Assembly (NCBI GenBank): GCA_964540305.1
Contig: CAZILZ010000002.1
Span: 28,330 to 92,329 of the forward strand
DNA length: 64,000 nt
Origin: an uncultured Microbacteriaceae bacterium
Lineage (GTDB): Bacteria > Actinomycetota > Actinomycetes > Actinomycetales > Microbacteriaceae
Reading direction: 5' to 3'
Position numbers and translations under genes: made by a program. The notes beneath the pieces were generated by a model that saw only the letters and a program-made list of their open reading frames with translations, made no database searches and was not told the origin of the DNA. Below, in pieces: positions 2,093 to 25,358 of this stretch (positions are counted from its first letter, which is position 1; each line of letters begins with the position of its first letter).

Positions 2093-2107
2093 TCGAGTAG
2101 TCCGTCG

Positions 2108-3199: not shown

Positions 3200-3269
3200 G
3201 GAGTGGTGCCTCCTCTGGTGCAGGCGTCGTTGGTGCGGAGAGGGACGGCGGTCACGAGACCGCTTTGTT

Positions 3270-3290: not shown

Positions 3291-3309
3291 CTTGCTGAGC
3301 GACAAGCGC

Positions 3310-5054: not shown

Positions 5055-5088
5055 GGGGAACTCCTGACTGGGCGCCTCGATGCGCCAA

Positions 5089-5109
5089 GTAGGAGGTTAT
5101 ACCTCTTAC
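5089..5109. promoter_or_regulatory. 21-nt near-palindrome GTAGGAGGTTATACCTCTTAC, candidate operator upstream of the nucleoside phosphorylase-add operon
   Basis: 8 of 10 arm pairs are complementary. It shares the core GTTATACCTC with the 3270-3290 site and lies 35-55 nt upstream of the phosphorylase ATG. Confidence 0.45.
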
Positions 5110-6296: not shown

Positions 6297-7902
6297 CCAC
6301 GATCGCCTTCGCCTCGCGCTGCACGAGCCGCAGGTGGTCGTCGCCCGCGAACGACTCGGCGTAGATCTTGTAGACGTTCTCGGTGCCGCTCGGCCGGGCC
6401 GCGAACCAGGCCCGGTCGGTGACGACCTTCACGCCACCGATACCCGCGCCGTTGCCGGGCGCGGCGCTGAGCCGCGCGGTGATCGGGTCGCCCGCGAGCT
6501 CGGTGGCCGTGATGGCGGCGCCGTCGAGCTTGCTCAACGCAGCCTTCTGCGCGGGGCTTGCGGGAGCATCCACCCGTTCGTAGACGGGCGTGCCGTACCG
6601 CTCGGTGAGACCGGTGTAGAGCCGCGAGGGCGTCGACCCGGTGACGGCGGTGATCTCAGCGGCGAGCAGGGCGAGCAGGATCCCGTCTTTGTCGGTCGTC
6701 CACGCACTGCCGTCGCGGCGCACGAAGCTCGCGCCCGCGCTCTCCTCGCCGCCGAACGCGACCGAGCCGTCGATGAGGCCCGGCACGAACCACTTGAAGC
6801 CGACGGGCACCTCCCACAGCCGCCGACCGAGCCCTGCCGCGACGTGGTCGATCATCGTCGACGAGACGAGCGTCTTGCCGATCGCGGCGTCGGGGCGCCA
6901 GCCGGGGCGGTGCGTGTAGAGGTACTCGATCGCGACCGCGAGGTAGTGGTTGGGGTTCATGAGCCCGCCGTCGGGCGTCACGATGCCGTGGCGGTCGGCG
7001 TCGGCGTCGTTGCCCGTCAGCAGGTCGAAGTCGTGACGGCGCGCGACGACGCTCGCCATCGCGCTCGGGCTCGACGGATCCATGCGGATCTTCTCGTCCC
7101 AGTCGAGCGTCATGAAGCCCCACTGCGGGTCGACGTTCGGGTTGACGACCGTCAGATCGAGGCCGTAGTGCTCGGCGATGAGCGCCCAGTAGTTCACGCT
7201 CGCGCCGCCGAGCGGGTCGGCGCCGATGCGCAGGCCGCTGGCGCGCACCGCCTCGAGGTCGAGGATGCTCGCGAGGTCGGCCACGTAGTGCAGCCGGTAG
7301 TCGTAGGGCTCGGTGAGCAGCGCCGCCTGGCGCTTCACCCCGCGGTTGCCGTCGGCGATGAGCGCGTTGGCGCGATCGGCGATCCAGTTCGTGGCGTCGC
7401 TGTCGGCCGGCCCGCCGTGCGGCGGGTTGTACTTGAAGCCGCCGTCGCGCGGGGGGTTGTGGCTCGGCGTGATGACGATGCCGTCGCTCTTCGCAGGGGC
7501 GTCGCGGTTGTAGCGGATGATCGCGTGGCTCAGCGCGGGCGTCGGCACGTAGTCGTCGTGCGCATCGATGAGCGCCGTCACGCCGTTCGCCGCGAGCACC
7601 TCGAGCGCGGTCTGCATCGCGGGCGCGCTGAGCGCGTGCGTGTCGGCGCCGACGAAGACCGGCCCGGTCGTGCCCTGACTCGCGCGGTACTCGACGATCG
7701 CCTGCGTGATCGCCGCGATGTGGGTGTCGGTGAAAGCACCGTCGAGGCTCGAGCCGCGGTGGCCGCTCGTGCCGAACACGACGCGCTGCGCCGGGTCGTC
7801 GAGGTCGGGCACGCGATCGACGTACGCGCCGAGCAGCGCGGAGAGGTCGACGAGGTCGGCGGGCTGGGCGGGGGTTGCGGCGCGGCTCATGCGCCCATCC
7901 AA
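6280..7902 (-). CDS. pgm: Phosphoglucomutase, alpha-D-glucose phosphate-specific
   Basis: GTSGHRG and the phosphoserine loop ITPSHNPPRDGGFKYN. 540 aa. Alternative start at 7890. Confidence 0.9.
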   Translation of the reverse strand: MDGRMSRAATPAQPADLVDLSALLGAYVDRVPDLDDPAQRVVFGTSGHRGSSLDGAFTDTHIAAITQAIVEYRASQGTTGPVFVGADTHALSAPAMQTALEVLAANGVTALIDAHDDYVPTPALSHAIIRYNRDAPAKSDGIVITPSHNPPRDGGFKYNPPHGGPADSDATNWIADRANALIADGNRGVKRQAALLTEPYDYRLHYVADLASILDLEAVRASGLRIGADPLGGASVNYWALIAEHYGLDLTVVNPNVDPQWGFMTLDWDEKIRMDPSSPSAMASVVARRHDFDLLTGNDADADRHGIVTPDGGLMNPNHYLAVAIEYLYTHRPGWRPDAAIGKTLVSSTMIDHVAAGLGRRLWEVPVGFKWFVPGLIDGSVAFGGEESAGASFVRRDGSAWTTDKDGILLALLAAEITAVTGSTPSRLYTGLTERYGTPVYERVDAPASPAQKAALSKLDGAAITATELAGDPITARLSAAPGNGAGIGGVKVVTDRAWFAARPSGTENVYKIYAESFAGDDHLRLVQREAKAIVDGALA

Positions 7903-7955
7903 CCACCGGCGGCCGTCGAGGGGGTGGGCGGATGCGCGGCAATAGACTGCCCACC

Positions 7956-8912
7956 ATGACGACCCAGCCCGCCCCGACCCCGGTGTACAGCTACCTGGGC
8001 CCGGCCGGTACCTTCACCTGGCACGCGCTCGGCCAGGTGCCCGAGGCCGCCGGGGCCGAGTGGCGCAGCGTCAGCAACGTCGGCGAGGCCCTCGACGATG
8101 TCGTCTCCGGCCGCAGCGTGGGCGCCATGATCGCGGTCGAGAACTCGATCGAGGGCGGGGTCAGTGCGACCCAGGATGCGCTCGCGACGATCCCGGGGCT
8201 GCGCATCATCGGCGAGTACCTGGTGCCCGTGAACTTCGTGCTCGTCGCCCGGCCCGGGGTGACCCTCGACGACGTGCGGGTCGTCGCCGGGCATCCCGTC
8301 GCCTACGCGCAGTGCCGGCGCTGGCTCGAAAGCGCGCTGCCCACCCACGGGCACATCCCTTCGGCGTCGAACGTCGCCGCGCCGCAGGGCCTGCTCGAGC
8401 CGGGCTCGCCCGCCCAGGCCGCCATCGCGCCACCGGGCATCACCGAGCTGCTCGACCTCGTCGAGCTCGCGAGCGGCATCGGCGACAACGCGAACGCCGT
8501 GACGCGCTTCGTGCTCGTGAGCCGCAGTCGCGAGCTGCCCCCACGCACGGGCGCCGACAAGACGAGCGTCATCGCCGAGCTGCCCGACGACGCCCCCGGC
8601 CGCCTGCTCGAGATGCTCGAGCAGTTCGCGACGCGCGGCGTCAACATGAGCCTCATCGAGTCGCGCCCCATCGGCGACGCCCTCGGCCGCTATCGCTTCG
8701 TCATCGACCTCGACGGGCACGTGCACGACGAGCGCGTCGCCGACGCGCTGCTCGGCCTGCGCCGCTTCAGCCCCAGCGTCATCTTCCTCGGCTCGTACCC
8801 CCGGGCGGATGCGCGGCAGATCGAGGTCGTCTCGCAGTACGGCGACGACGTCTTCACGGATGCCCGCGACTGGCTGCGCGCCATCCTCAGCGGCGAGCCC
8901 GACGCGCCCTAG
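7956..8912 (+). CDS. pheA: Prephenate dehydratase
   Basis: YLGPAGTFT N-terminus, TRF motif (NAVTRFVLV) and ESRP motif (SLIESRPIG) of the ACT domain. Start trimmed to the ATG at 7956 because the upstream part of the track ORF overlaps pgm. Confidence 0.88.
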   Translation: MTTQPAPTPVYSYLGPAGTFTWHALGQVPEAAGAEWRSVSNVGEALDDVVSGRSVGAMIAVENSIEGGVSATQDALATIPGLRIIGEYLVPVNFVLVARPGVTLDDVRVVAGHPVAYAQCRRWLESALPTHGHIPSASNVAAPQGLLEPGSPAQAAIAPPGITELLDLVELASGIGDNANAVTRFVLVSRSRELPPRTGADKTSVIAELPDDAPGRLLEMLEQFATRGVNMSLIESRPIGDALGRYRFVIDLDGHVHDERVADALLGLRRFSPSVIFLGSYPRADARQIEVVSQYGDDVFTDARDWLRAILSGEPDAP

Positions 8913-8960
8913 GTCAGCGCGCTTCTTCAGCGGAGGAGTTTCGAAGTCGCTGACCCTAGG
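8908..8960. terminator. Imperfect long hairpin overlapping the pheA stop codon
   Basis: CCTAGGTCAGCG pairs with CGCTGAC(C)CTAGG: 12 bp with a 1-nt bulge and a 28-nt partly self-pairing loop. No U-tract. Confidence 0.35.
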
Positions 8961-9042
8961 CGACAGGGCGATGTCGGTAAGTGCGACTAACGTCACTGTC
9001 ACCCGAGTGCGGGTCTTGAATCCTCGTCAATAACGGGAGAGT

Positions 9043-9156
9043 ATGAGCGACATGCCCCGCCCACCCCTCGGCGCTGATCATCTTCGCCTCGCCCAACACG
9101 CAGCCGCGCCTGAGTTCTGCGCGCTCTCGATCCTCGCCTCGGTTGATCACGCGTGA
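9043..9156 (+). CDS. Possible 37-aa leader ORF of the cassette (speculative)
   Basis: ATG preceded by GGGAGAG. The stop TGA (9154-9156) overlaps the GTG start (9153-9155) of the next gene. Sequence MSDMPRPPLGADHLRLAQHAAAPEFCALSILASVDHA. Too short for coding statistics to be reliable. Confidence 0.2.
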   Translation: MSDMPRPPLGADHLRLAQHAAAPEFCALSILASVDHA

Positions 9157-9542
9157 GCGCGCTGCCTCCCGCACCCCCTCAGCCCATCGCGGTCCCCGAC
9201 GGTGCCCAGCGCACTGCTCAGGTCATGCCCGTCATCGTGGCCACCGTCGCGGTTATCGTCAGCGCACTCGTGATTGTCGTCCAGGTCGTCTTCAGCCTCG
9301 ACGTCTGGCAGCTGTACGTGCTCGGCTGGGTGGCGACTCCCGTTGCCACCCTGTTGTGCGTGGGCTGGGATGCGATTGGGCAGCGCGCGGGACTCGCTGA
9401 CCCGTGGTTCGATGCGCGGCCGCAGTACTCGGCTGTGCTGCGCTTGGTCGCCGTGCTCGGGCTCATCCTGGGGGGCTTTCACATCGTTCGCATCGGAATC
9501 GCCGCCGGCACGGCGGCCGTGAGTTCGGGGTGGTTCGGTTGA
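9153..9542 (+). CDS. Small integral membrane protein (about 3 TM), first gene of the vWA/tubulin-like cassette
   Basis: 129 aa with three hydrophobic segments (VMPVIVATVAVIVSALVIVVQVVF, LYVLGWVATPVATLLCVGW, VLRLVAVLGLILGGFHIVRIGIAAG). Its stop overlaps the next ATG (TGATG). Confidence 0.6.
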   Translation: MSALPPAPPQPIAVPDGAQRTAQVMPVIVATVAVIVSALVIVVQVVFSLDVWQLYVLGWVATPVATLLCVGWDAIGQRAGLADPWFDARPQYSAVLRLVAVLGLILGGFHIVRIGIAAGTAAVSSGWFG

Positions 9543-12367
9543 TGCGGCGTCACATGGCACTCGTAGGTGTGCTCGTGGGCGCCCTCATTCTTCCCTTCGG
9601 GGCCGGAGCAGTCGCGTCGACCTCGGAGGAAGAGTCGACGTCGGGCGTCGGCATCCCTGACAGGAGTGCCGCCGCAGAGGCTGCCTTCAGGGACGTGACC
9701 CGCTGCCTTAACTCCGGTCAGAGCCCGAGCCTCGACGTTCTCTACCTCGTCGACCTCTCCGACTCCATCGACAAGTACGGCCTGGGCGGCATCCTTCAGA
9801 CGGTGCTCTCGACGAGCGTCCAGCAACTCGATCGGTTCCGCGATCGCGGCACGGAAGTGGCGTACTCGCTCGTGGCATTCGGGTTCGACCACGAGACTCT
9901 TATTCCGTGGACGGCGATCGACGGATCCGACCAGACGGATGCAGTTGAAGGGGCACTGTCTAACGCCTCCGTGGATGGACGGGGGACCAACTATCTTGCT
10001 GGCCTCGAGGCAGCTCAAGAGCAGCTTGAGATGCGTTCTGGGTCCTGCCGCATGCTCATCTGGATGACGGATGGTGCCGTCAACATGGGAGGTGCGTTTG
10101 ACAGCGTCTTCCCGAGCCTGGAGCGGATCTGCCGGCCTGGAATATCCAGAGATGGGCTCGGACCTGCAGGGGGTGGTTTCGGCATCATGCAAGAGCTGCG
10201 TGACTCCGGGATTCCCACCTTTGGCGTCTTCTTCACGAATGACCAGCTCAGGGAGGGTCTACTCGATTTCGAGCGTTGGAAGATCGACTTCTTGCGGCCG
10301 ATCGTCGAAGGCAGAGGTGTGGTCGCCCCCCTTGACTCCGAAACGGAAGGTGAGCTCAGCGGGTTCACTTTAGAGTGCGCAGAGGTCGATGACGAGGGCG
10401 TGGCTCCTTCGGGCTCCGCAAACGGAGCGCTCATTGAGTCGGAGGATCCCGTCGCTCTAGCGTTCGACTTCTTGCGGCTCGAGGCGGGCCTTTCTGGCGG
10501 TACTGGGGCACCGACCGCCGAAGATGGAAGCTTTGAGGTGCCTGCCGGCACTGCCTACTTCCGCGTCATCCTGCCGTCTGATCAGTGGTCGCTGACCGAC
10601 CCGAATGGCGAGGCCGTCCCCGTGAAGCCGAGTTCGATTACCCAGGCAGGCGGGGCGACCTCCATCGAGGTCGAGGTTGACGAGTCGGGATGGGGGGAAT
10701 GGACGGTCTCCAGCGAGGGAAACGCGATCGTCTACCTGTTCACGGGTCTGGCGCTGGTTCTCGACCGCGACTTGAACGACAGCATCCTCAGCGAAACAGA
10801 AAACACCCTGAGCGGCAGAGTGGTGGCGGAGAGCGGGCGCGAGATCGTCGTGAACGACGATCTCGTGCGCCATTTCTCAGACTGGGGAACCGTCGACGTC
10901 GAAGTGGTTGCGGGAGGCCTCCAGTCGCAACCTTCCGGGAGCCTCTCCTCCACCGGCGTGTTCGAAGTGTCCGGGCTCACGCCAGAGGACTCTGCGCCTA
11001 TCGAACTGCGAGTGTCGTTGGCGCTCGGCGGCGAGTTCGATCCCATCGAGTCGACCTTCCAGCTCCGTGTGGTTGACGGTGGGGCATTCGCGCTCCCTGC
11101 AAGCAAGAGCCTCGAACTGACGACGCTCGAGGGCCCGGACGGCGCGGCAACGGGCGTCCTGCAAATACTCCCGCCAGACGCTGCAGAGTCCGCTCAAGTC
11201 TGCGTGGCATCTCCGCAGCGCCTTGACGATCTCCCTAGTGCGCGAAATGACCCTGTGAGACCTCGAGGTTCCTTCACCTGGGCGATTGACTCTGACGCTG
11301 AGATCGATGGCGACGGGTGCTTCACCGTTCACCGTGACGAACCAGTCCAACTGTCGATTTCGATCGGGAATCCAGAGCAGCTCAACTCCCGAGTGGTTGG
11401 TGCATTCACCGTCGAGTCGCGAACCGCAGATGGAACCTCCGAGCACATTGAGCCCGTCCTCCTCGGATTCGACTCTCGAACGCAGCAGAACCCATGGATT
11501 GTCGCCGCGGCGATCATCCTGATGCTGATTCTCGGGCTAGGGCTGCCGATGTTCGCTCTCTGGCTCTGGAACCGCGCATCAACGAAGTTTGCGCCGGTCG
11601 AAGCGGTGACACGCGTTGCCTACCCCGTTCGAATAGAACGCGCTGGCCGACTGGCCGTACTGGACCGTCGACATGACTCCGACGGTCAACGGATCACAGT
11701 GCGCCCCAACGACTTCAGTTACGTGGCATCCCAGCCCACGAGCGCCGTTTTCGATTCAGGGCGCGGCCAGATGCGTGCGCGGGTGCCATGGTTCCCGCTG
11801 TCCAAGTCGTGGTTCGAGTGGGTAGCGCCTCCGGGTCACCGTGTCGTCTCCGTCGTCGCTGGCAGCACCAAGCAGACGCGGGAGGTCGAGTCGTTCCTGG
11901 CGACAGAGGTGTCGGCAGACATCGCCCGGGCGTGGGCGATCATCGTGTCCGATTCCGCGCTTCTCTCCGAAGACTCCTCGATTGACGGAGATCTCGTCGT
12001 ATTCAGCGGGATGCACAGTGACGTCAGGCAGTACCAGCGCCGCGTTGACGACGTCATTGCCACCCCCGGCCTTATCGATGCTTTGACGGCTGCCGCGGAA
12101 TCGGCCCGTGCTGATCGCCAGGTCGGCTCCACTGGTGCGGTGTCGTTTGAGCCTGTGAGCGTCGGGGTAGCCGTCCCTTCTTCTATGCCTGATCGGTCTG
12201 GACGGTCGATGCATCAGCCGGGAGCGCCCACGCCTCCGGGTGCGCGATCGTTCGACCCAGTGCAGAGCGAGCCCGCCGTCGGCTCAAACACTCCATCGGA
12301 ACCGGGTCCGCTCGCCCCGCCGCGGCCTCCGTCTGGACCGTTGGCGCCCCCGCCGCCCCCGCAATGA
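9542..12367 (+). CDS. Exported von Willebrand factor A (vWA) domain protein with a single C-proximal TM helix and a cytoplasmic Pro-rich tail
   Basis: Signal peptide MRRHMALVGVLVGALILPFGAGAVAS. MIDAS DxSxS (DLSDS at 9752-9766), later TNYLAG and MTDGA. TM helix WIVAAAIILMLILGLGLPMFALWLW (about 11495-11569). Tail ...PLAPPRPPSGPLAPPPPPQ. Start trimmed from 9404 to 9542. Confidence 0.8.
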   Translation: MRRHMALVGVLVGALILPFGAGAVASTSEEESTSGVGIPDRSAAAEAAFRDVTRCLNSGQSPSLDVLYLVDLSDSIDKYGLGGILQTVLSTSVQQLDRFRDRGTEVAYSLVAFGFDHETLIPWTAIDGSDQTDAVEGALSNASVDGRGTNYLAGLEAAQEQLEMRSGSCRMLIWMTDGAVNMGGAFDSVFPSLERICRPGISRDGLGPAGGGFGIMQELRDSGIPTFGVFFTNDQLREGLLDFERWKIDFLRPIVEGRGVVAPLDSETEGELSGFTLECAEVDDEGVAPSGSANGALIESEDPVALAFDFLRLEAGLSGGTGAPTAEDGSFEVPAGTAYFRVILPSDQWSLTDPNGEAVPVKPSSITQAGGATSIEVEVDESGWGEWTVSSEGNAIVYLFTGLALVLDRDLNDSILSETENTLSGRVVAESGREIVVNDDLVRHFSDWGTVDVEVVAGGLQSQPSGSLSSTGVFEVSGLTPEDSAPIELRVSLALGGEFDPIESTFQLRVVDGGAFALPASKSLELTTLEGPDGAATGVLQILPPDAAESAQVCVASPQRLDDLPSARNDPVRPRGSFTWAIDSDAEIDGDGCFTVHRDEPVQLSISIGNPEQLNSRVVGAFTVESRTADGTSEHIEPVLLGFDSRTQQNPWIVAAAIILMLILGLGLPMFALWLWNRASTKFAPVEAVTRVAYPVRIERAGRLAVLDRRHDSDGQRITVRPNDFSYVASQPTSAVFDSGRGQMRARVPWFPLSKSWFEWVAPPGHRVVSVVAGSTKQTREVESFLATEVSADIARAWAIIVSDSALLSEDSSIDGDLVVFSGMHSDVRQYQRRVDDVIATPGLIDALTAAAESARADRQVGSTGAVSFEPVSVGVAVPSSMPDRSGRSMHQPGAPTPPGARSFDPVQSEPAVGSNTPSEPGPLAPPRPPSGPLAPPPPPQ

Positions 12368-12416
12368 CAACGCCCTGAACCCACCCATCGACTTTCGCAA
12401 GAGAATAGGAATCGAC

Positions 12417-15400
12417 ATGCTGCAGCCGTTCATCCTCATCGGAGTCGGTGGTTCAGGGGGCAAGACGGTTCGTGCCGTGCGCCAGAACCTCCAATGGAAG
12501 CTCGAGCAGCTTGGCTGGTCGCACCTGCCCAAGGGCTGGCAGTTCCTGCACATCGACGCCCCGACCTCTCCCGATGGCATCGACTTTCCGGCACCCCTTC
12601 TTCCTCAGGACGACTACTTGTCGGTGGTGCCACGGGGGCTCAGCTACCGGCAGGTGCACGACCGCGCGATCAACGGGCTCGGCAAAGAGGTCGCTCGTGA
12701 AGCGATGCGCCCGCTGCCTGCTCCGCCGGACGTCACCGTGCCCATCGAACTCGGTGCAGGAGCACTTCGTGGCATCGGGCGGACGTTGCTCGTCGCTGGA
12801 TTGAAAGATGTCTCAGATCGCGTCCGGGGCATGCTCAGTGAAGCAACCGGGCAAGGGGCGGACGCGGAGTTGGCCCAGCTGACTCGTGAACTCGGCTTCA
12901 AGGTGGGTATCCCGAGCAGCACGCCGACGATCATCGTCATCTCTTCTGTGGCAGGGGGCTCCGGGGCAGGAATGTTCATCGACGTCTCGGAAGCGATCAA
13001 GGCTGCAGTGGGGCCCAAGGACGCCGCCCATCGGATCTTCTCCCTGTTGTACGCCCCGGACGTATTCGAAGAGCTTGGTCCCAAGGCGATGGCGGCCATG
13101 GTGCCGAACTCAATGGGCGCTTTGTCGGAGCTCGTCGCGGGCTTCTGGCGCGGAATGCCTACCCAGACGACGATGAGCGTCTACAAGCAGAAGGGCCTGA
13201 CGGTACCGACTGACGACAAGTCCACGATCGGCCCCGGCTTCAACTATGTGCTGGGTCGCCGAAACGGAGGCGCGAACGCTATCGACTTCGGTTCGCAACA
13301 GGGCGTGTACCTCGCAGTGGCGTCGAGCGTGACAGCGTGGATGACGGATGCGCGAGTGCAGGACAACCTGACCGCGTACGCCGTGGCGAACTTCCAGACG
13401 CTCTCTGCCAACCTCACGGACAACTCGCTGCTCAAACCGAGTGGCAAGGGTCAGCCGTTGTCGTCGTTGGGATTCGCCCGGGTCTCACTCGGTACCGAGA
13501 AGTTCTTCGAATACGCCGCAGAGCGAATCGCCAAGCAAGCCGTGACCACGATGCTGACGCAGCACCTCTCGACAGATCCAGAGCGTCGTGAGAAGAAGGA
13601 AGATCAGTGGATCGAGCACCACGCGAATCTGAATGAAGGAACCTTCATCGCGGATTCTGGCCTCAACGAGCGCACAGAACTCAACAATCAAGTCACTGAA
13701 GCGCTTCAGCCCGATCTCGAGCCGCACTATGCGAAGCTCCGGCGAGTCATCGAAGAGGCCGCGACGGCGGGAATGCCCGCCGGCGGGCAGTCCTTCGACC
13801 AGTGGACCACGAAGATCGTCAACGCCTACCAGTTGAACCTCTCTGACGTGCGCGACGAGGTGGAGCGGCTTCGCAACGAGAAGATCCGCTCGTGGGTCAT
13901 CACGCAGCCGACGGAAGTTCTCGCCCTGGTCACGAAGACGATGTCGCAGCTCGGTCTCCCCGTCACCGTGAAGCTCCTCGAGCGGTTGATTCAGCAGTGC
14001 AAAGAGGCCATTGGCGACTTGAAGGAAGAGCGGGGCCGGCACCTGCGTGACGCAGACGCCCTGACCCAGAACGTCTCGCAAGCGCTCGGTGCAGCGTCCG
14101 GCATGAGCACCATTCCGCGGACGAACCCTGCCGTTGCACAAGCACTTCACCAGGCCCAGATGTGCTTCTACTGGTCGACCATGGCTGACCTCAAGGAGTC
14201 AACCGGTGAGCTGCTCGAAGACTTCGTGGGCGGGTACTTGGCGCCGCTCACCAAGAGGCTCGCGGAGGGCTTGGAGGTCCTCCGTTCATCGGCCACGGAC
14301 CCGAATCTGCCGGACGGAAACGTCAATCCCTACCTCGTATGGCCGACCTTCGACCAGACGACCGTCGACCGCAGATTCGATCCTGCGCCCAACGAGCAGA
14401 TGTTGATCTCGCCTGACGCCTTCGCATCGGAGTTCGATCGACTGGTGCTTGACAGTGTGAGCGACCCTCATCTGCCTGCGCATCGCATCGTCATTGACGA
14501 AGTGCTCTTGGGGGCGAACCTTCCGGACGTCGCCAAGCTGAAGCACGAAGACCAGTGGAAGATTCTCTCCGTGCCGGATGGCAGAGGGTGGATTCCGAAG
14601 AATCGCCACTTCCAGCCGTCGACCGCGAGCAACCAAGTTGCGCAGTTCGCCTTCGAGACCGATCCATTGAAGTACCTGAGCGTCTCAAAGAAGTGGATTC
14701 GACTCCCCGGCCGCGCCTTCAGGGCATTCATCGAGCAGACGGTCGTGTCGTACCTGAAGACCAGCGACCAAGCAGAGCGAGCGCGTCGCGGTAAGCGCTT
14801 CACCGCTGCAATGGCCGCCGCAGCGCAGTCGTCGTACCCCTTGGTTGCGCTCGACCGGGCATTGCTCGATGCGACACACGGGCCTATTGAGGTGAGCGCG
14901 GTATGTTCCGGTATCCCGCTCGACCGTGAAGACCCGCTCTACGAGCCCATCGCGAACTCTCTGCTCACCAATGGGTATGACCCCGAGAAGGCCGCGAAAG
15001 ACTGGTTCGTCGGCGAGGGCAAGGGCAGCATGATCAAGTCGATCGAGATCTTCGCCCAACTGAGTGTCTCGATGGGCCCGATCCCGCTCGCCTCAATGCT
15101 CAGCCCGATCTTGAACGAGTGGAACCGCGTCTCGAAGAACACCGCGGCACGCATGGGCTTCATGTCCATGCGGCGGGCTCGCCTGCTCCCCGAGGCCATC
15201 CCCGCGCATCCTACGCATTGGCGAGCAATGCTTGCAGGGTGGTTCGTAGCTCGTCTCCTGAATCAGGTGCAGGAGGACAAGTCGGGCAAGGACTTCAAGG
15301 ATGCTGGGCCGCAGTTGAGCGTCTGGGCAGACGATGCCCGCGGCTTCGTCGATTTCCCGTTTCCGCTGTATTCGGCACATATTGCGAGCAGCATCCATCA

Positions 15401-15812
15401 CTACCCGGGGGTGATCCTCGATTCACTGATGATCGCACTGGCACAGTGTCATGGTGCGCACAATCTCAGCCCGCTCGCGCCATACCAGCGGCTGCTCGAG
15501 CTGGGCGGTGGTGGCGGACACTGGATCGATCTTCAGGAGTGGGTGCTCACCGGAAAGCCGCGACACGGGGCTCCTACCCCCAAGTCGGAGCGTGCGGGAT
15601 CGTCGGAGCTCGACGTCGAAGGTCGTCGTGCGGCGTGTGTGGCCTACCTCGAGTCGTGCCAGTCGACTTTTGACAAGTTCATCAGCGCGCTCAACCCGAA
15701 TGCTGACCCGCGCACCTACCCGGTCAGCTGGGAGATTCGCGAGGACGTCGAGTGGGCGATCAACCAGGCCATCGACGCGTGCAATCACGTCGATGACGGC
15801 GAAGAGCTCTAA
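12417..15812 (+). CDS. Large (1131 aa) tubulin/FtsZ-superfamily-like GTPase domain protein (Tubulin_2 / FtsZ-like type)
   Basis: N-terminus MLQPFILIGVGGSGGKTVRAV resembles the FtsZ T1 loop (compare IGVGGGGGNAV). IIVISSVAGGSGAGMFIDV resembles the tubulin signature/T4 loop (GGGTGSG). AGGA RBS 7 nt upstream of the ATG. No TM segments, and about 700 aa of uncharacterised C-terminal sequence. Confidence 0.7.
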   Translation: MLQPFILIGVGGSGGKTVRAVRQNLQWKLEQLGWSHLPKGWQFLHIDAPTSPDGIDFPAPLLPQDDYLSVVPRGLSYRQVHDRAINGLGKEVAREAMRPLPAPPDVTVPIELGAGALRGIGRTLLVAGLKDVSDRVRGMLSEATGQGADAELAQLTRELGFKVGIPSSTPTIIVISSVAGGSGAGMFIDVSEAIKAAVGPKDAAHRIFSLLYAPDVFEELGPKAMAAMVPNSMGALSELVAGFWRGMPTQTTMSVYKQKGLTVPTDDKSTIGPGFNYVLGRRNGGANAIDFGSQQGVYLAVASSVTAWMTDARVQDNLTAYAVANFQTLSANLTDNSLLKPSGKGQPLSSLGFARVSLGTEKFFEYAAERIAKQAVTTMLTQHLSTDPERREKKEDQWIEHHANLNEGTFIADSGLNERTELNNQVTEALQPDLEPHYAKLRRVIEEAATAGMPAGGQSFDQWTTKIVNAYQLNLSDVRDEVERLRNEKIRSWVITQPTEVLALVTKTMSQLGLPVTVKLLERLIQQCKEAIGDLKEERGRHLRDADALTQNVSQALGAASGMSTIPRTNPAVAQALHQAQMCFYWSTMADLKESTGELLEDFVGGYLAPLTKRLAEGLEVLRSSATDPNLPDGNVNPYLVWPTFDQTTVDRRFDPAPNEQMLISPDAFASEFDRLVLDSVSDPHLPAHRIVIDEVLLGANLPDVAKLKHEDQWKILSVPDGRGWIPKNRHFQPSTASNQVAQFAFETDPLKYLSVSKKWIRLPGRAFRAFIEQTVVSYLKTSDQAERARRGKRFTAAMAAAAQSSYPLVALDRALLDATHGPIEVSAVCSGIPLDREDPLYEPIANSLLTNGYDPEKAAKDWFVGEGKGSMIKSIEIFAQLSVSMGPIPLASMLSPILNEWNRVSKNTAARMGFMSMRRARLLPEAIPAHPTHWRAMLAGWFVARLLNQVQEDKSGKDFKDAGPQLSVWADDARGFVDFPFPLYSAHIASSIHHYPGVILDSLMIALAQCHGAHNLSPLAPYQRLLELGGGGGHWIDLQEWVLTGKPRHGAPTPKSERAGSSELDVEGRRAACVAYLESCQSTFDKFISALNPNADPRTYPVSWEIREDVEWAINQAIDACNHVDDGEEL

Positions 15813-15815
15813 GAG

Positions 15816-17702
15816 ATGGCGCTCGATCCGATTTGGAGCCAGTCGGGGCTTTCGGTAGTGCTTCTCCCGGCCGGGGAGCGTGGCCTCACTCTCCTCGAGC
15901 TCGCTCGAGACTGGACAGTACTGAAGCTCTTGAGACCGTCCGTGTGGGTGCGCCCCGAGGAAGTCACTGCTATTCCGGGTGAACCTCCCCGCGTACTTGC
16001 TCACATTCTGGGCAGCTCAACCACCAACGAGCTCGAAGAGATTGAAGTTGACCTCTTCGAACAGCTCGCGCGCCAGGGGTTGACGGGCACGCGCCTGTTG
16101 GTCGTCCGTCCGCTCGCGGAGGGCGTCGAGTTCGATGCCGACCAGGATCGTGCGGTCGACGTCCTCGCCCCATATTTGAAGAACTCGATTCCCCAGGTGC
16201 CGACGTCGGCGGTGACGTCGACCGATCAGATTCCTTTTCTCTTGATCAACCTCCTGGTGGGGCCGACGGAACACGTCACTGCGTGGGCCGACCAGGTTGT
16301 CGCAGCTCGGCAGCCCTTCAACGCGCACATCGTGGCTTCGCCGGAGGACCGTTCGAGTCCGTTCTCCGGCGATGCCTTCGTTCGGTATGACAATGCCGGT
16401 GGCCGGTTTGCTGGCTTCGCCATGATGCACATCGCCACGATCGCCGGATTCTGGCAGGGCTTGCCGCGCGGGGGCTACGAGTTGATCCGTGAGACCGCCT
16501 GGGAAGGGAACCGGGCTTATGTCTCGCGGGTATTCGCGAGCGCCATTCTTACCGACGGCCTGATTCAGCGCGCCTGCGCCCGTGTATTGGAGCGCGCCGC
16601 ATCGGCAGACCCCGAGCGATCGGCACTCACGGTCGAGGCCAACGTCAGCGACACGTTCGCAATCACCGACGATGTCAACGATCCGTGGATCAACTACCTG
16701 ATTGACCAGGCCTTCTCTCTGCGCGATGGCGCTCTCGCGTATCGCCCCGCGATCTCTGACGAAACCCCGGTGAAGACGGAGTTCACCCTGTGGAACCAGT
16801 TTTTAGACTTCTCTCGGTTCTCAGTCGACAAGCTCGTGCGCGCTCCGTACTACTTTGGTCTGGCCCTGTATCGCCGCATTGCACGAACGTCGAATGCGAC
16901 CCTTCAGGGAGGGGACCGCGGTTCGGCGTTCGTCGACGAGCGCGCAGACAAGCCTGACATCCGTGATCTCGAACTCCTGCGAAGGTACGACCAGATTGCG
17001 GAGGAGAAGAGTCGGGCAGATCGCGCGCTCGTCTCGCCCGTTCTCGCCAGTGCGACGCGCACCCCGCCCGAACTCTGGAGCGATCTCCGCAAACTGGTGT
17101 TTGCCTTCCTCGACGGTTCCGGTCAAGAACAGTTCGGTGTTCGCCGAACCGAGGCGGGCCGGCCCGTGTTTCCTCGAGTGCAGTCACTGTTCACTGACCC
17201 CAGCGTCACCGTGACCGTGGCAGACCCCGATCGACCGGGGGACATGATTGAACTCGGCTGGTTGGCGAGACGCGAGACGGCGGAAGCCCTCGACCGCCTG
17301 GCCCAATCGATCATTCGTGGCAATGACGAGCTCGATGCACTGTTGACCGAACTCGTCGACGCCTCCGCGAGACGCGACACACTCGTGGCGCGTCTCGATG
17401 AACTCGACCGTGAGCGCGTGGACGCGGTTGAGCAGCAAGAACGACAGCGTGCGGCTGAACGGGACGCCGAGCGACTCGCCGAGCGTGAGGCGGCTAAGGC
17501 AGCAAAGTCCGCAGCGGCAAAGTCGACAGCGGGGTCGGCCGCAGCGAAGCCGAGGAAGGGCCGTTCTGCGCCGGCGACCAATGCATCCGAGACCAGCAGC
17601 CCCGAGGTTGATTCTGACGACAGGGGGGAGATGGCAGACGAGGCGGCTCGCTCGTCTTCGTCGTCTCTCGCTTCGTCGTCGAAGGGAGTTCCCACGTCAT
17701 GA
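15816..17702 (+). CDS. Uncharacterised 628-aa protein with a C-terminal coiled-coil and an Ala/Lys/Ser-rich low-complexity tail
   Basis: Starts 3 nt after the tubulin-like gene stop. No recognisable catalytic motif. Heptad-like charged segment ...LTELVDASARRDTLVARLDELDRERVDAVEQQERQRAAERDAERLAEREAAKAAKSAAAK... Confidence 0.6.
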   Translation: MALDPIWSQSGLSVVLLPAGERGLTLLELARDWTVLKLLRPSVWVRPEEVTAIPGEPPRVLAHILGSSTTNELEEIEVDLFEQLARQGLTGTRLLVVRPLAEGVEFDADQDRAVDVLAPYLKNSIPQVPTSAVTSTDQIPFLLINLLVGPTEHVTAWADQVVAARQPFNAHIVASPEDRSSPFSGDAFVRYDNAGGRFAGFAMMHIATIAGFWQGLPRGGYELIRETAWEGNRAYVSRVFASAILTDGLIQRACARVLERAASADPERSALTVEANVSDTFAITDDVNDPWINYLIDQAFSLRDGALAYRPAISDETPVKTEFTLWNQFLDFSRFSVDKLVRAPYYFGLALYRRIARTSNATLQGGDRGSAFVDERADKPDIRDLELLRRYDQIAEEKSRADRALVSPVLASATRTPPELWSDLRKLVFAFLDGSGQEQFGVRRTEAGRPVFPRVQSLFTDPSVTVTVADPDRPGDMIELGWLARRETAEALDRLAQSIIRGNDELDALLTELVDASARRDTLVARLDELDRERVDAVEQQERQRAAERDAERLAEREAAKAAKSAAAKSTAGSAAAKPRKGRSAPATNASETSSPEVDSDDRGEMADEAARSSSSSLASSSKGVPTS

Positions 17703-19576
17703 CCGAGTCAGTGAAGACGGCGCCCGTTGCGGATGAACTGGATGAGCAACAGGAGCCGACACATCGAAGCGTTGCGGAGGTCGACGCAGAACTCGCAGCT
17801 GCTCGGGCGGAGATCGTCGCACTCGAGCGGCGGCGGGCTGAGGTTGCTGTCGCGACTGAGCACCTCCAGGAACTCATCAACGACCGAGATCTCGCACTTA
17901 AGGATCTGCAGGCCTGGGTGGACAGCATCGATCGAAGCTTCTCGTGGAAGCTCCAGGAGGGTATGTCGGAGAACCTCTCGAAGGCGCAGTCGCATCTAGG
18001 CGAATTCGAATCCGCGGTCTCGGGGCTGGAAGTCCCTGCTCGCGGTGTGCTCGCTGAACTTCGCGACCGGTTCTATCGCGGTCTCGCACGAGGGCTCGTC
18101 ATCCTGCTCATGCCCGCTCTCATCGGGGTGATCGTCTTCCTGCTCCTTCGTTTTGGCCTCGGGGAGACCCTGACGGCGCTTTTCGGCACGGGGGGAGAGC
18201 TGACTGGCGTTCTGACCGTGCTGGTGCTCAGCGGCGTGGTGCTCGGAGTACTCGCTCTCATCGGCCGCATGACTGGAAGTCGATGGCTGAGGGGAGCGGT
18301 GCTAGGACGCATCGGGGTGGTCCTGGCCGTGATCGCCGGGGTGCTCTTGCTTGTCGCGTGGTTGAGCCAACCCAGCGATACGGGCTCTGCGGAGGTGCCA
18401 GAGCCGATCGCTGGGGTGGCGGGAGACATCATCGCGGCGCAGGTATTGCGGTGGTTCGTCGACAACCTGTGGTGGATCATCCTCGCCTATGTTCTCGTGA
18501 TCGTCGCGACGATCGTCGCCCTTCTCGTGGCGTATTACACGGGTTGGTCGGTGTTCCGTCGTCAGGTGACTGAGCAGTTCACCCGGCTGGAAAACGTCTC
18601 GCGCGGATACAGGCAGACCAAGCAGGAGGTGAAGCGCCTCGAGCAGCTGTACGAACAACTCTCGACCTGGCTCGAGATCATCGCTCACAGCCTGTATCGG
18701 CCCTGGCGCATCGACCCGCGTTGGGTGACGTCGCATGAGCTGCAGTTGTCGGCTGAGAACTTTCCGTTCGCGCTGCGTGTCGCACAGGCGACCGATGCAG
18801 AGTCAGCGCAGGTCGCGAATCTCGAACGGCTGATTGCAGAGCGACTGCTTCAGCAGGGCTGGCGTCAAGAGGCGTTCGACGACATGCTCGGCGCCATTAA
18901 TGCGGCAGAGGGCTACGAGCACGGCCGCCTTACTCCACAACTCCTTGATGCTGACCTGCCCCACCAGAGCAACAACTCTCGGGAGCTCGTGCTCGCTCGA
19001 CTGCGGGCGGCCGCACTGGATGACGCAGACGGAGACGAGACTCGACAGCAGTTCCTCGTCGATGTCGCTCGTCTGCGCCTGCGCGACCTCATTCGACGGA
19101 CTCAGTCGCAGGTGCTGTCTGAGGCGCGACCCGATGTCGTGCAGATCGTAGTTGACCCGCTTTCAGGGGTGCGGGAGGGACACATGGGTGTCGCTGGCGA
19201 GGTCGCCCCGACGACCTGGGATGACTTCCTCAAGGATGCTCTCGGCATCACCGAGGAAGAGCCCGAACTCAGCCGGATGTCGTTCACCGAAGAGGGCTTG
19301 GCGAGCCGGGCCCCGTCCGCGGTCAAGACCCGACTCATCGTTCCGACGCGTCTTGCCGACACCTTGCCGCCAGTAGATGGACGCGTGGGCCAGGTTGTGC
19401 CGACGGCTGATGTGAGTACGGGACGGTCCGCGGAGGTGCTGGTGAGATTCGACGCCGTGGGACCGCTGCCGTTTGAGCATGTGCATCTGGTGCAGGCCGT
19501 GAGCGGGTCGTTTACGCGGGCCGCGGAGGAGACGGCCGTGGCGGTCGAGGTACCCGTCGACGACGAGGAGCTCTGA
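17699..19576 (+). CDS. Uncharacterised 625-aa membrane protein: N-terminal coiled-coil, 4-5 TM helices, C-terminal soluble domain
   Basis: ATGA overlap with the preceding gene. Coiled-coil AEVDAELAAARAEIVALERRRAEV... Hydrophobic block from GLVILLMPALIGVIVFLLL to WWIILAYVLVIVATIVALLVAYY. Confidence 0.6.
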   Translation: MTESVKTAPVADELDEQQEPTHRSVAEVDAELAAARAEIVALERRRAEVAVATEHLQELINDRDLALKDLQAWVDSIDRSFSWKLQEGMSENLSKAQSHLGEFESAVSGLEVPARGVLAELRDRFYRGLARGLVILLMPALIGVIVFLLLRFGLGETLTALFGTGGELTGVLTVLVLSGVVLGVLALIGRMTGSRWLRGAVLGRIGVVLAVIAGVLLLVAWLSQPSDTGSAEVPEPIAGVAGDIIAAQVLRWFVDNLWWIILAYVLVIVATIVALLVAYYTGWSVFRRQVTEQFTRLENVSRGYRQTKQEVKRLEQLYEQLSTWLEIIAHSLYRPWRIDPRWVTSHELQLSAENFPFALRVAQATDAESAQVANLERLIAERLLQQGWRQEAFDDMLGAINAAEGYEHGRLTPQLLDADLPHQSNNSRELVLARLRAAALDDADGDETRQQFLVDVARLRLRDLIRRTQSQVLSEARPDVVQIVVDPLSGVREGHMGVAGEVAPTTWDDFLKDALGITEEEPELSRMSFTEEGLASRAPSAVKTRLIVPTRLADTLPPVDGRVGQVVPTADVSTGRSAEVLVRFDAVGPLPFEHVHLVQAVSGSFTRAAEETAVAVEVPVDDEEL

Positions 19577-19662: not shown

Positions 19663-20469
19663 GTGTCGGAGAGCACAGACGGCGCCATCTCGCGCTGGAG
19701 TATTCGACCCTGGCTCGCGATCGTCGCACTTGTGGTCGCCTTCGCGATCGGCGGTCTCGCGGGATATGCGATTCGGGGGGAACCGGCCTCGAATGAAGGG
19801 ACCCCCCGTCCTGACGCCGCGCCATCTACCAGCTCGTCGGCTGTCGCCACCCCGATTCCCCCCGTCGGGGGTTCGCCGGCACCGAGTGGCCCAAACCGCG
19901 ATCCTTCCATCACGTCGGCAGACCTTCTCATTGATCAGCTGGACACCTTGACCACATCGAGGGGGTTCGTGGCGGACTACGACAGGGACTTGTTCGGTCA
20001 GAACGGCTTCGACTTGGACCGCAACGGCTGCGACACGAGAAACGACATTTTGCGCCGCGACCTACTCGACATCGTGCTCAAGGCTGACACCAACGGGTGC
20101 AAGGTGCTTCGAGGAACATTGATTGACCCGTACTCCGGGCAGGCGATCGACTTCATCTCAGGCGAAACGACCTCATTCGAGGTTCAGATCGACCATCTGG
20201 TGCCGCTGGCATGGGCCTGGCAGAACGGAGCAAGCCTCTGGACGATTGACCGGCGAACGGAGTTCGCCAACGATCCCGAGAACCTACTGGCGGTGGAAGG
20301 AGGTCTGAACCAGGAGAAGTCGGCGTCAGGGCCGGCAGAGTGGTTGCCCCCCAACCGCGCGTTCCACTGCGACTACGCGGCGGGCTTCGCGGCCGTGCTT
20401 GTCGAGTATGGCCTCGCCGTGCCTGACGACGATCGTGCTGTTCTGATCGACATCCTCGAGCGCTGCTGA
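19663..20469 (+). CDS. Membrane-anchored HNH-type nuclease, DUF1524 (GmrSD C-terminal-like) family
   Basis: N-terminal TM helix WLAIVALVVAFAIGGLAGYAI, a Ser/Pro linker, then ...RNGCDTRNDILRRDL...VQIDHLVPLAWAWQNGA...NLLAVEGGLNQEKS..., typical of DUF1524/HNH nucleases. GTG start is uncertain. Confidence 0.7.
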   Translation: MSESTDGAISRWSIRPWLAIVALVVAFAIGGLAGYAIRGEPASNEGTPRPDAAPSTSSSAVATPIPPVGGSPAPSGPNRDPSITSADLLIDQLDTLTTSRGFVADYDRDLFGQNGFDLDRNGCDTRNDILRRDLLDIVLKADTNGCKVLRGTLIDPYSGQAIDFISGETTSFEVQIDHLVPLAWAWQNGASLWTIDRRTEFANDPENLLAVEGGLNQEKSASGPAEWLPPNRAFHCDYAAGFAAVLVEYGLAVPDDDRAVLIDILERC

Positions 20470-23721: not shown

Positions 23722-23806
23722 GGAGGGCTGTCCGAGCGGCCGATGGAGCCAGTCTTGAAAACTGGTGGGCAGCAATGTCTCGTGGGTTCGAATCCCACGC
23801 CCTCCG
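23722..23806 (+). tRNA. tRNA-Ser (anticodon UGA)
   Basis: Acceptor GGAGGGC/GCCCTCC, anticodon stem CCAGT/ACTGG with loop CTTGAAA, long variable arm, T-loop GGTTCGAATCC. CCA is not encoded. Confidence 0.9.
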
Positions 23807-23842
23807 CTCGACCAGCGCCCCGACGTGTCCGAGGGGGACAAC

Positions 23843-25147: not shown

Positions 25148-25154
25148 CGCGTGC

Positions 25155-25175
25155 CCGGCCGCGGCTCGCGGCCGG
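25155..25175 (+). terminator. GC hairpin after the LCP gene
   Basis: CCGGCCGCG-gct-CGCGGCCGG, a perfect 9-bp stem with a 3-nt loop, 8 nt after the stop codon. Confidence 0.5.
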
Positions 25176-25196
25176 TATAGTAGAGACGCTTTGCTA

Positions 25197-25285
25197 GGAG
25201 ACGTCGCATAGTTCGGCCTAGTGCACCACCCTGCTAAGGTGGAGTCCCCGCAAGGGGACCGCGGGTTCAAATCCCGCCGTCTCCG
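25197..25285 (+). tRNA. tRNA-Ser (anticodon GCU)
   Basis: Acceptor GGAGACG/CGTCTCC, anticodon stem CCACC/GGTGG with loop CTGCTAA, long variable arm, T-loop GGTTCAAATCC. Confidence 0.9.
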
Positions 25286-25358
25286 CTCAAGCCTTCCGTT
25301 CACCACTGGTAGGCTTGCACGGTTGCTTTCGCAGCCACTCGCTGACGAGAGTCAGCAT

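Follow-up and report, generated by a model that had tools for sequence, protein, structure and literature searches.

What is encoded by a run of five densely packed genes in a segment of low guanine-cytosine (GC) content of an actinobacterial genome, and is this set of genes already known? The question is raised by DNA of an uncultured Microbacteriaceae bacterium (assembly GCA_964540305.1, contig CAZILZ010000002.1, positions 28,330 to 92,329), a stretch of 64,000 nucleotides that is referred to here as the window. A first-pass annotation, made from the letters of the window alone, had singled out a coupled cassette encoding a protein with a von Willebrand factor A (vWA) domain, a tubulin/FtsZ-like protein as well as coiled-coil and membrane proteins, and had regarded it as a candidate uncharacterised system. 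The five genes are termed g1 to g5 in the following, and the nuclease gene next to them is termed g6. With moderate confidence, we consider the cassette to be a horizontally acquired, compact form of the B2-vWA-FtsZl1-B3 operon, in which B3 is split into two genes and to which g6 is added as a facultative component, and whose products act as an envelope-spanning complex.

A compact FtsZl1 operon

Makarova & Koonin (2010, Biol Direct 5:33) defined the FtsZ-like 1 (FtsZl1) proteins, in which an FtsZ-like N-domain is followed by a coiled coil and a helical C-domain. The corresponding operons also encode a vWA protein, lineage-specific membrane proteins (families B1 to B9), kinases, a new GTPase and OmpA-like proteins, and a role in membrane remodelling was proposed for them. 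Additional file 5 of that study lists Xcel_1380-1377 of Xylanimonas cellulosilytica, which encode proteins of 84 amino acids, 918 amino acids (vWA), 1118 amino acids (FtsZl1) and 1027 amino acids (hypothetical), and the layout B2-vWA-FtsZl1-B3-B4-B5-B6-GTPase for Corynebacterium and Rhodococcus. At a Rhodococcus megaplasmid locus, hidden Markov models (HMMs) of g1 to g5 match four consecutive, partly overlapping open reading frames (ORFs), with g4 and g5 both matching the ORF after FtsZl1. Because these matches lie at the B2, vWA, FtsZl1 and B3 positions, the cassette of the window corresponds to the B2-vWA-FtsZl1-B3 core.

A pattern scan of one genome per species (185,579 species representatives) revealed 176 loci that encode a relative, 80 of which were retrieved and analysed for co-conservation by tblastn and, subsequently, by an iterative HMM search over all of their ORFs. 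Nearly all of these loci carry the names of Actinomycetota (Microbacteriaceae, Nanopelagicales, Acidimicrobiia, Georgenia, Occultella, Amycolatopsis and others), and four records are labelled otherwise (Chitinophagales, Planococcus, Acidobacteriota). All five genes are present in 53 loci, the order is always g1-g2-g3-g4(-g5) on one strand, and the recurrence of this gene order in essentially all 80 loci is far beyond chance. The expectation that the genes are conserved together thus holds across Actinomycetota.

In the window, g1 to g5 occupy positions 9153-19576 of the plus strand and are overlapping or closely packed. A second reading of the sequence reproduced every junction described before: a possible leader ORF (9043-9155) overlaps the GTG start codon of g1 at 9153 (GTGA), the g1 stop codon overlaps the ATG of g2 at 9542 (TGATG), the g2 stop codon at 12367 is followed by a gap of 49 nucleotides containing an AGGA motif at 12407-12410 and by the ATG of g3 at 12417, the TAA stop codon of g3 at 15812 is separated by three nucleotides from the ATG of g4 at 15816, and g4 and g5 overlap at 17699-17702 (ATGA), with GGGAG upstream. 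The leader ORF is preceded by GGGAG three nucleotides 5' of its ATG, and the GTG of g1 lacks a Shine-Dalgarno sequence; the leader ORF is too short for homology testing and had no tblastn match. Terminator-like sites within the cassette are not more frequent than expected by chance (10 versus 6.5 +/- 2.3 after shuffling), and no sigma-70-like site was found in the array. Judging from this arrangement, the five genes probably form an operon.

The encoded proteins

Hydropathy analysis (Kyte-Doolittle) predicts three transmembrane segments for g1, one in addition to a signal-like N-terminus for g2, none for g3 and g4, and four for g5. The inside/outside arrangement that had been read from the translations, with a three-pass g1, a single-pass g2 carrying a cytoplasmic polyproline tail, soluble g3 and g4 and a membrane-embedded g5, is in agreement with this prediction; for g5, the lower of the two numbers suggested before (four to five helices) was obtained. 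No Pfam family was matched by g1, g4 or g5, and scans of all components against NCBIfam and PHROGs gave nothing significant. PADLOC-DB v2 yielded no significant match for any of the six proteins or a fused homologue of g4 and g5; g3 and g4 reached noise level only (E 0.006-0.014), and g6 and the fused homologue gave no match at all. In addition, known membrane-remodelling domains (ESCRT-III/PspA, dynamin, BAR) were found in none of the cassette proteins by Pfam or by a Foldseek search with a model of the fused g4-g5 homologue. The impression that no characterised system matches the cassette was therefore right for PADLOC, NCBIfam, PHROGs and PDB sequence searches, and the literature searched contained only computational work.

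Homologues of g1 are located upstream of the vWA gene in 60 of the 80 loci, and the g1 HMM matches the ORF 5' of the vWA gene in the Rhodococcus FtsZl1 operon (E 3.9e-5). The g2 protein, homologues of which are found in 74 loci, consists of a signal-like N-terminus, an extracytoplasmic part with a vWA domain, its metal-ion-dependent adhesion site (MIDAS) and a beta-rich region, a transmembrane segment, a cytoplasmic domain and a polyproline tail; polyproline tails recur among the g2 homologues of most loci. The vWA fold, formerly recognised from motifs, is recovered by Pfam (VWA_2, E 4.7e-9; VWA, E 2.2e-6; both above threshold), and a Pfam scan of 33 homologues returned the vWA domain only. 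The MIDAS motif is intact (D71-x-S73-x-S75, T149, D177), and each of its residues, together with five cysteines typical of exported proteins, shows a conservation of 90% or more in 33 diverse homologues. This conservation fits a functional, exported domain with a predicted metal-dependent binding activity.

In the g3 protein, the FtsZ-like nucleotide-binding domain lies at the N-terminus, long helices follow at residues ~460-627, and the C-terminal region is of a mixed alpha/beta type. The protein matches the Pfam family Tubulin_2 (PF13809) with an E-value of 2.4e-43 and 149.2 bits at a cut-off of 27, covering profile positions 1-355 of 356. Two glycine-rich loops, GVGGSGGKT (residues 8-17, T1-like) and SSVAGGSGAG (176-185, T4-like), show no or almost no variation among 70 sequences with identities down to 34%, and D335 after the H7-like helix, a candidate T7 residue only, is invariant in the same set. 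An AlphaFold2 model built from the 70 sequences reached a mean confidence (pLDDT) of 91.2 and a pTM of 0.82. It contains helices at 460-512, 514-547 and 571-627, which are followed by a mixed, helix-rich region up to residue 1123, and thereby shows the build of FtsZl1 proteins. In Foldseek, the 37 best PDB matches of the model are all FtsZ or CetZ proteins and number 38 is TubZ (probability 1.00, E from 1.6e-4, about 360-380 aligned columns); the best viral structural matches are phage FtsZ and tubulins. Family and structure searches thus bear out the tubulin/FtsZ fold assumed in the first-pass annotation. Altogether, g3 has 528 homologues, and conservation spans the full length of about 1130 residues.

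Homologues of g4 were detected in 75 of the 80 loci and those of g5 in 59, and the g4 homologues fall into two length classes. In the class of about 1050-1090 amino acids, the first half aligns with g4 and the second half with g5; indeed, g4 and g5 form a single ORF in 45 of the 59 loci. Among 1.84 billion representative proteins, only 361 relatives of g4 were found, and these have a bimodal length distribution and always carry the g4 domain at the N-terminus. The ORF after FtsZl1 at the Rhodococcus locus (L082) is matched by the g4 HMM (6e-24, residues 39-496) and by the g5 HMM (4.4e-15, residues 502-747); its assignment to B3 is based on its position and on the analogy to R. opacus ROP_13790 and cgR_2625, rather than on a direct comparison with cgR_2625. 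On the basis of these alignments, g4 and g5 correspond to family B3 of Makarova & Koonin, which appears to be split into two parts here.

The g4 protein consists of a conserved N-terminal alpha/beta domain (~1-470), one long helix and a low-complexity tail rich in alanine, serine and lysine. The earlier description as a soluble coiled-coil protein is accordingly right with respect to the missing transmembrane segments, but most of the protein is a globular domain. Neither Pfam nor PADLOC contains a match for g4, and a PDB sequence search with a g4 profile was empty. A partial copy of g4 that is 100% identical to window positions 15816-17699 is present as a hypothetical protein (P0124) in a metagenome-assembled genome (MAG) of Rhodoglobus sp., which points to a Rhodoglobus-like member of the Microbacteriaceae as the source of the window. 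The g5 protein has a helical, cytoplasmic N-terminal part, four transmembrane helices and a cytoplasmic C-terminal domain; both ends are predicted to be cytoplasmic because the number of transmembrane helices is even. A fused homologue (P0160) has two transmembrane helices at the equivalent place. When a fused homologue was modelled with AlphaFold (pLDDT 75), the N-terminal alpha/beta domain was followed by long helices, a transmembrane hairpin and a C-terminal mixed domain, and a Foldseek search of this model against the PDB gave nothing below an E-value of 0.02. The best leads obtained, a glutathione synthetase N-domain, FtsZ (E 0.51) and alpha-pore-forming toxins (E 0.5-2), are too weak and were discarded, and the idea that g4 is a 'pseudo-FtsZ' was negative in a profile-profile comparison with g3 (probability 0.2).

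Two proteins with the same tail

The last three to five residues of g3 and g5 are alike within a locus and co-vary between loci. The tails of g3 and g5 in the window end on DDGEEL and VDDEEL, and the pairs found elsewhere include DEREFL/DREFL, EDRLS/EDRLS, AKSGI/VNSGI, DDDGD/DDEGD and TPEF/GPEF. When the last four residues were scored with BLOSUM62 in 45 loci, the score was 10.98 for tails of the same locus and -0.64 for tails of different loci, a difference that was reached in none of 20000 permutations. Restricting the set to a single locus for each of the 35 motif classes gave 9.86 and -2.01, again with 0 of 20000 permutations, and the control residues -12 to -7 showed no matching. The distribution of the tail classes follows clades. 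The codon is shared by 67 of the 150 identical tail residues and differs in the other 83, by which gene conversion as the source of the matching is ruled out.

Both tails are disordered in the models of g3 and of the fused g4-g5 homologue, and their topology places both in the cytoplasm. Most simply, the tails of g3 and g5 would dock to one shared, co-evolving pocket, and docking would act as a tether or as a competitive switch, with a function similar to that of the FtsZ C-terminal peptide. A description of matching tails was not found in the available portions of Makarova & Koonin (2010) and Kaur et al. (2020). One Microbacteriaceae MAG (CANBWO01) contains two paralogous cassettes, L004 and L050, with 38% and 29% identity to g3. 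Their C-terminal tails differ, which would agree with an insulation of the paralogous systems from each other.

Horizontal transfer and genomic surroundings

The lower-GC islet mentioned in the first-pass annotation is real. The GC content is 0.61-0.666 across 9-21 kb when calculated in 1-kb intervals, compared with 0.72 in the three upstream intervals (6-9 kb) and with 0.73 and 0.70 in the two intervals that follow downstream, and it ranges from 0.66 to 0.77 over the remainder of the window. In the window as well as in the closest relative, the cassette is flanked by pheA, a diacylglycerol-kinase-like gene (DAGK) and serS, none of which was ever found near it in the 80 other loci. In 17 cultured genomes, the 127 flanking genes are a heterogeneous collection of transport and housekeeping genes. 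Because of the GC dip, the absence of pheA, DAGK and serS near the other loci and the heterogeneous flanks elsewhere, the cassette is regarded as horizontally acquired and inserted between pheA and the DAGK/serS genes.

The 127 flanking genes of the 17 genomes show no enrichment of defence genes or mobile elements, which rules out a defence island as the general context. Direct repeats resembling att sites were not found at the flanks of the low-GC segment, and the nearest tRNA genes lie 3 kb beyond it and do not adjoin its boundary. These are two tRNA-Ser genes (tga, gct) and one tRNA-Arg gene (acg) at 23722-25432, 3-5 kb downstream of the segment. No phage record carries the cassette, and plasmid occurrence is limited to two Rhodococcus megaplasmids with a distant homologue. 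The operon is also retained in the streamlined genomes of about 1.5 Mb of Nanopelagicaceae (L029). The cassette therefore moves as a unit, outside any recognisable mobile element or defence island.

One relative is arranged differently. On a JGI metagenome contig (L085, positions 1-13375; P0035), g1-g2 lie on the opposite strand about 9 kb from the FtsZ-like gene, the intervening segment encodes JAB, ThiF-like E1, YukD ubiquitin-like, FHA-like and UQ_con E2-like proteins, and no g4/g5 follows the FtsZ-like gene.

A facultative nuclease gene

The ORF at 19663-20469, which corresponds to the nuclease gene noticed in the first-pass annotation, is the only co-conserved gene besides the cassette in window positions 1-32000. 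It encodes a GmrSD_C/DUF1524 protein with an N-terminal transmembrane anchor (residues 19-37), a linker rich in proline and serine and a DUF1524 domain of the His-Me finger/HNH-like type (Pfam GmrSD_C, E 9.5e-16, residues 124-257). The motif residues DH (177-178), N207, N216 and K219 and four cysteines are at least 90% conserved in 25 homologues, 23 of which have the hydrophobic anchor. From this topology, the nuclease domain is predicted to be extracytoplasmic and to face outwards like the vWA domain. A DUF262 (GmrSD_N) NTPase domain was not found in g6, which is therefore no GmrSD type IV endonuclease.

Homologues of g6 adjoin the cassette in 22 of the 51 loci with enough flanking sequence (43%). 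In 19 of them, the gene is located directly 3' of the g4g5 stop codon, and in three (Occultella, Georgenia) it lies divergently 5' of g1; in the closest relative, g6 starts 14 nucleotides after g5, and in the window the two genes are 86 nucleotides apart. Linkage by broader synteny is ruled out, since the genes beyond g6 are common to at most 6 of 24 loci. Hence, g6 is a facultative sixth component and not a chance neighbour.

Feature coordinates and neighbouring genes

Coordinates of the cassette, its attached gene and their parts (positions of the window)
Feature	Position	Strand	Basis
Possible 37-aa leader ORF overlapping the g1 start (putative)	9043..9155	+	Translation
g1, 129 aa, three predicted transmembrane helices, family B2 of Makarova & Koonin	9153..9542	+	Hydropathy, homologues
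g2, 941 aa, single-pass membrane protein	9542..12367	+	Pfam, hydropathy, homologues
g2 vWA domain, residues 65-208	9734..10165	+	Pfam coordinates
g2 transmembrane anchor, residues 653-671	11498..11554	+	Kyte-Doolittle score 2.67
g2 proline-rich cytoplasmic C-terminal tail (...PLAPPRPPSGPLAPPPPPQ)	12254..12364	+	Translation
AGGA ribosome-binding site of g3	12407..12410	+	Sequence reading
g3, 1131 aa, cytoplasmic FtsZ-like 1 protein (FtsZl1, Pfam Tubulin_2)	12417..15812	+	Pfam, AlphaFold, Foldseek, homologues
g3 Tubulin_2 domain, residues 6-376	12432..13544	+	Pfam coordinates
g3 C-terminal tail DDGEEL, disordered in the model	15792..15809	+	Translation, AlphaFold, tail comparison
g4, 628 aa, soluble, N-terminal half of family B3	15816..17702	+	Alignment motifs, fusion, homologues
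g5, 625 aa, membrane protein, C-terminal half of family B3	17699..19576	+	Hydropathy, homologues, fusion proteins
Four transmembrane helices of g5, residues 132-278	18092..18532	+	Hydropathy
g5 C-terminal tail VDDEEL	19556..19573	+	Translation, tail comparison
g6, 268 aa, accessory component	19663..20469	+	Pfam, hydropathy, linkage; inside the low-GC segment

Further downstream, the window contains an ORF of 3236 amino acids (51456-61166, plus strand) with ten DUF5979 repeats and a DUF7601 domain, which is probably adhesin-like and surface-exposed; the long minus-strand ORFs antisense to it have no Pfam matches and are probably spurious. An Lhr-type helicase (DEAD, Helicase_C, DEAD_assoc and four Lhr winged-helix domains) is encoded at 45497-50728 on the minus strand, in the most GC-rich part of the window (0.74-0.77). 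The cumulative GC skew peaks near 50-51 kb and then falls, which coincides with the boundary between the helicase gene on the minus strand and the giant ORF on the plus strand.

Function and alternative explanations

The gene set, its order and topology, the intact MIDAS, the FtsZ-type fold of g3, the g4-g5 fusion, the co-inheritance of the genes and the co-varying tails are established; the biological role may lie in envelope remodelling or in conflict. In the mechanism that we propose, the products of g1 to g5 would form one envelope-spanning complex, in which the extracytoplasmic vWA/MIDAS domain of g2 might bind a ligand on the surface or from outside. Together with the membrane protein formed by g4 and g5, the cytoplasmic domain of g2 and its polyproline tail would bring g3 to the membrane, where g3 may assemble or switch its state in a GTP-dependent manner. 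The disordered C-terminal peptides of g3 and g5 would dock into, or compete for, one co-evolving cytoplasmic pocket, which could be located in g4, in the cytoplasmic domain of g2 or in g3 itself; docking might serve as a tether or a switch, comparable to the binding of the FtsZ C-terminal peptide to FtsA, ZipA or SepF. The output would be a local change of the membrane or envelope and, where g6 is present, the cleavage of DNA outside the membrane.

Several points speak against this explanation. Co-transcription of the five genes is putative, GTP hydrolysis, polymerisation and complex formation are predictions, and the receptor of the tails is hypothetical. Makarova & Koonin (2010) did not find the T6-H7 elements required for FtsZ-type filaments in FtsZl1. 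The template-modelling (TM) scores of the g3 model to FtsZ are modest (0.39-0.48, normalised to the target), which suggests that mainly the nucleotide-binding domain is shared with FtsZ. Furthermore, no match of g3 to PF00091 or FtsZ_C was obtained at E <= 0.1, and a PDB sequence search with a 12-sequence g3 profile gave no match. Because of the modest TM-scores, the missing PF00091 match and the empty PDB profile search, g3 is set apart from canonical FtsZ and tubulin: its nucleotide-binding domain is FtsZ-like, and the whole protein is neither a canonical FtsZ nor a tubulin. The tails mismatch in a few of the 45 loci (e.g., L003 and L004) and do not match in the single Rhodococcus (Corynebacterineae-type) locus that was checked. 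Finally, g6 is missing from more than half of the loci (57%) and for this reason cannot be the core output.

The rival that fares best is a conflict or immune system, in which the vWA/MIDAS domain would sense an invader at the surface (a phage, an epibiont or a toxin) and trigger the assembly of the FtsZ-like GTPase, followed either by disruption of the membrane through the helical hairpins of g5 (abortive infection) or by destruction of incoming DNA through g6. Kaur, Burroughs, Iyer & Aravind (2020, eLife 9:e52696) indeed class actinobacterial neighbourhoods of tubulin and membrane vWA genes as GTPase-centred conflict systems, but the GAP1, GTPase and FNIII-HRDC parts of these systems are missing here. 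The patchy distribution (176 of 185,579 species representatives), the low GC content and the differing chromosomal sites would suit a system of this kind; however, no phage carries the gene, PHROGs and PADLOC gave no match for the six proteins, the latter also none for the fused homologue, the cassette is surrounded by transport and housekeeping genes in 17 cultured genomes (127 genes), and the operon is kept even in the small genomes of Nanopelagicaceae. Likewise, the domain of the linked nuclease forms the catalytic half of GmrSD type IV restriction enzymes, but the nuclease faces outwards and occurs in only 43% of the loci. The rapid diversification of the interaction tails, the ubiquitin-like E1/E2/JAB cluster wedged into locus L085 and the vWA-based threat sensing that was demonstrated experimentally in Actinomycetota for the unrelated MoxR-vWA Esr pathway also speak for a role in conflict. 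On balance, this explanation is possible and rather unlikely. The first-pass annotation had called a defence role conceivable; the nuclease gene on which this was partly based proved to be a linked component, defence databases and neighbouring genes did not point to defence, and the idea is left neither supported nor excluded.

A second rival, which is improbable in our view, is the original proposal of Makarova & Koonin, a housekeeping-type envelope device whose cytoskeletal element shapes the membrane or wall (vesicles, wall insertion or anchoring), with the vWA domain binding a wall component. It draws on their gene-context argument, on the combination of an FtsZ-family protein with many membrane proteins and on the ordinary cellular genes at the flanks, although a patchy, horizontally transferred distribution would be unusual for a core envelope function. 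The exported conserved cysteines and the intact MIDAS suggest a stable extracellular binding function, but the linked nuclease and the fast-evolving, matched tails would be left unexplained, and no ESCRT-III/PspA, dynamin or BAR domain was found. The use of a surface nuclease and a vWA protein to capture and cut environmental DNA for nutrition or uptake, with the GTPase powering or organising the process from inside, is hardly credible: an anchored, extracytoplasmic His-Me nuclease with conserved catalytic residues is indeed encoded directly 3' in 19 loci and divergently upstream in three, but it is absent from 57% of the loci with enough flank, no competence, pilus or transporter genes are linked, and the vWA domain has no known DNA-binding role.

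The preferred envelope-spanning complex can be sharpened into a surface-triggered switch, a version that we regard as doubtful. Capture of a ligand by the MIDAS would free the g5 tail from its pocket, the identical g3 tail would dock in its place and nucleate a GTP-dependent assembly that opens or remodels the membrane, and this would, where g6 is present, license the outward-facing nuclease against incoming DNA. As a further possibility, the N-terminal domain of g4 might be a nucleotide-free FtsZ-like 'pseudo-subunit' that caps the polymer, which would build on the weak Foldseek match to FtsZ (E 0.51). If true, a tail-competition switch would add to bacterial immunity or envelope signalling a new, cytoskeleton-based class that works by tail mimicry.

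Within the tubulin/FtsZ superfamily, FtsZl1 is the branch that has diverged most, and sixteen years after its description neither a function nor a structure is known for any of its members. The compact form of five to six genes is found in Microbacteriaceae that can be cultured and are accessible to genetics (Clavibacter, Microbacterium, Leifsonia, Rathayibacter) and lacks the many extra components of the Corynebacterium/Rhodococcus type, and should therefore be a good minimal system. The g4-g5 fusion, the surface nuclease and, above all, the matching tails are concrete and cheap starting points for testing the function of FtsZl1.

Comparison with known systems

The Esr threat-sensing pathway of Actinomycetales, one of the MoxR-vWA ternary systems (Wang et al. 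2026 bioRxiv 10.64898/2026.09.08.750141), belongs to a different family. Like the cassette, it is a multi-gene, envelope-associated module of Actinomycetota that includes a vWA protein, whereas the MoxR ATPase, beta-propeller sensor, kinase/phosphatase and FHA output of Esr have no counterpart here and the NTPase of the cassette is FtsZ-like. GmrSD and other DUF262-DUF1524 type IV restriction enzymes have the DUF1524 His-Me finger with the conserved DH...N...N..K residues in common with g6; in contrast to these enzymes, g6 lacks DUF262, is membrane-anchored and predicted to face outwards, and has conserved pairs of cysteines.

Among the tubulin-related systems, TubZ/TubR/tubC and phage PhuZ resemble the cassette in that a divergent GTPase of the tubulin/FtsZ family is encoded on accessory DNA, and TubZ is among the structural matches of g3. 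The cassette differs by the absence of a DNA-binding adaptor and a centromere, by partners that are all membrane proteins and by the lack of phage records. Canonical FtsZ with its tethers FtsA, ZipA and SepF shares the fold of the nucleotide-binding domain and a disordered C-terminal peptide that plausibly acts as a tether. Unlike FtsZ, g3 has no PF00091 or FtsZ_C match, is longer by 750 residues and has no established T7/activation domain; moreover, its membrane partner carries the same tail as the GTPase, which is not known for FtsZ, and the genes form a patchy accessory operon instead of a division locus.

Closer to the cassette are the larger actinobacterial neighbourhoods that Kaur et al. 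(2020) describe as GAP1-N2 GTPase-centric conflict systems. Both contain a single tubulin-family protein with a C-terminal helical domain next to a membrane protein with an extracellular vWA domain and a beta-rich domain. The features that define these systems, namely GAP1, one or more zinc-ribbon TRAFAC GTPases and an FNIII-HRDC protein, are present neither in nor beside the cassette, and Pfam matches to a P-loop GTPase, HRDC or FN3 were not obtained in g1 to g6 or their immediate flanks.

The closest relatives are the FtsZl1-vWA operons of Makarova & Koonin (2010), represented by Xcel_1380-1377 and by the core of cgR_2628-2625 of C. glutamicum R, which comprise the same families in the same order. 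Sizes are shared as well, with a small membrane protein, a vWA protein of about 900-1000 amino acids, an FtsZl1 protein of about 1100-1200 and a large membrane protein of about 900-1030, and the published FtsZl1 proteins have the same three-part build as g3 and are likewise experimentally uncharacterised. An experimental study of the family was not found in the literature searched, which holds only computational descriptions. In contrast to these operons, the large membrane protein is split here into two translationally coupled genes, which are fused in the otherwise identical layout of Xylanimonas, and a DUF1524 nuclease gene is attached. The B4, B5, B6 and GTPase genes of Corynebacterium and Rhodococcus and the kinases of the Frankia/Streptomyces type are absent, and matching tails are a trait of the compact type that the one Rhodococcus locus checked does not share. 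The FtsZ-like families that the first-pass annotation had attributed to Makarova & Koonin (2010) were thus cited correctly, and the cassette belongs to FtsZl1; since the layout of Xylanimonas cellulosilytica had already been listed in Additional file 5, its novelty is reduced. The cassette is not new as a kind but a compact actinobacterial form of the FtsZl1-vWA operon, to which the present analysis adds the fusion of g4 and g5 and their identity as B3, the linkage of the DUF1524 nuclease and the matching, co-varying tails.

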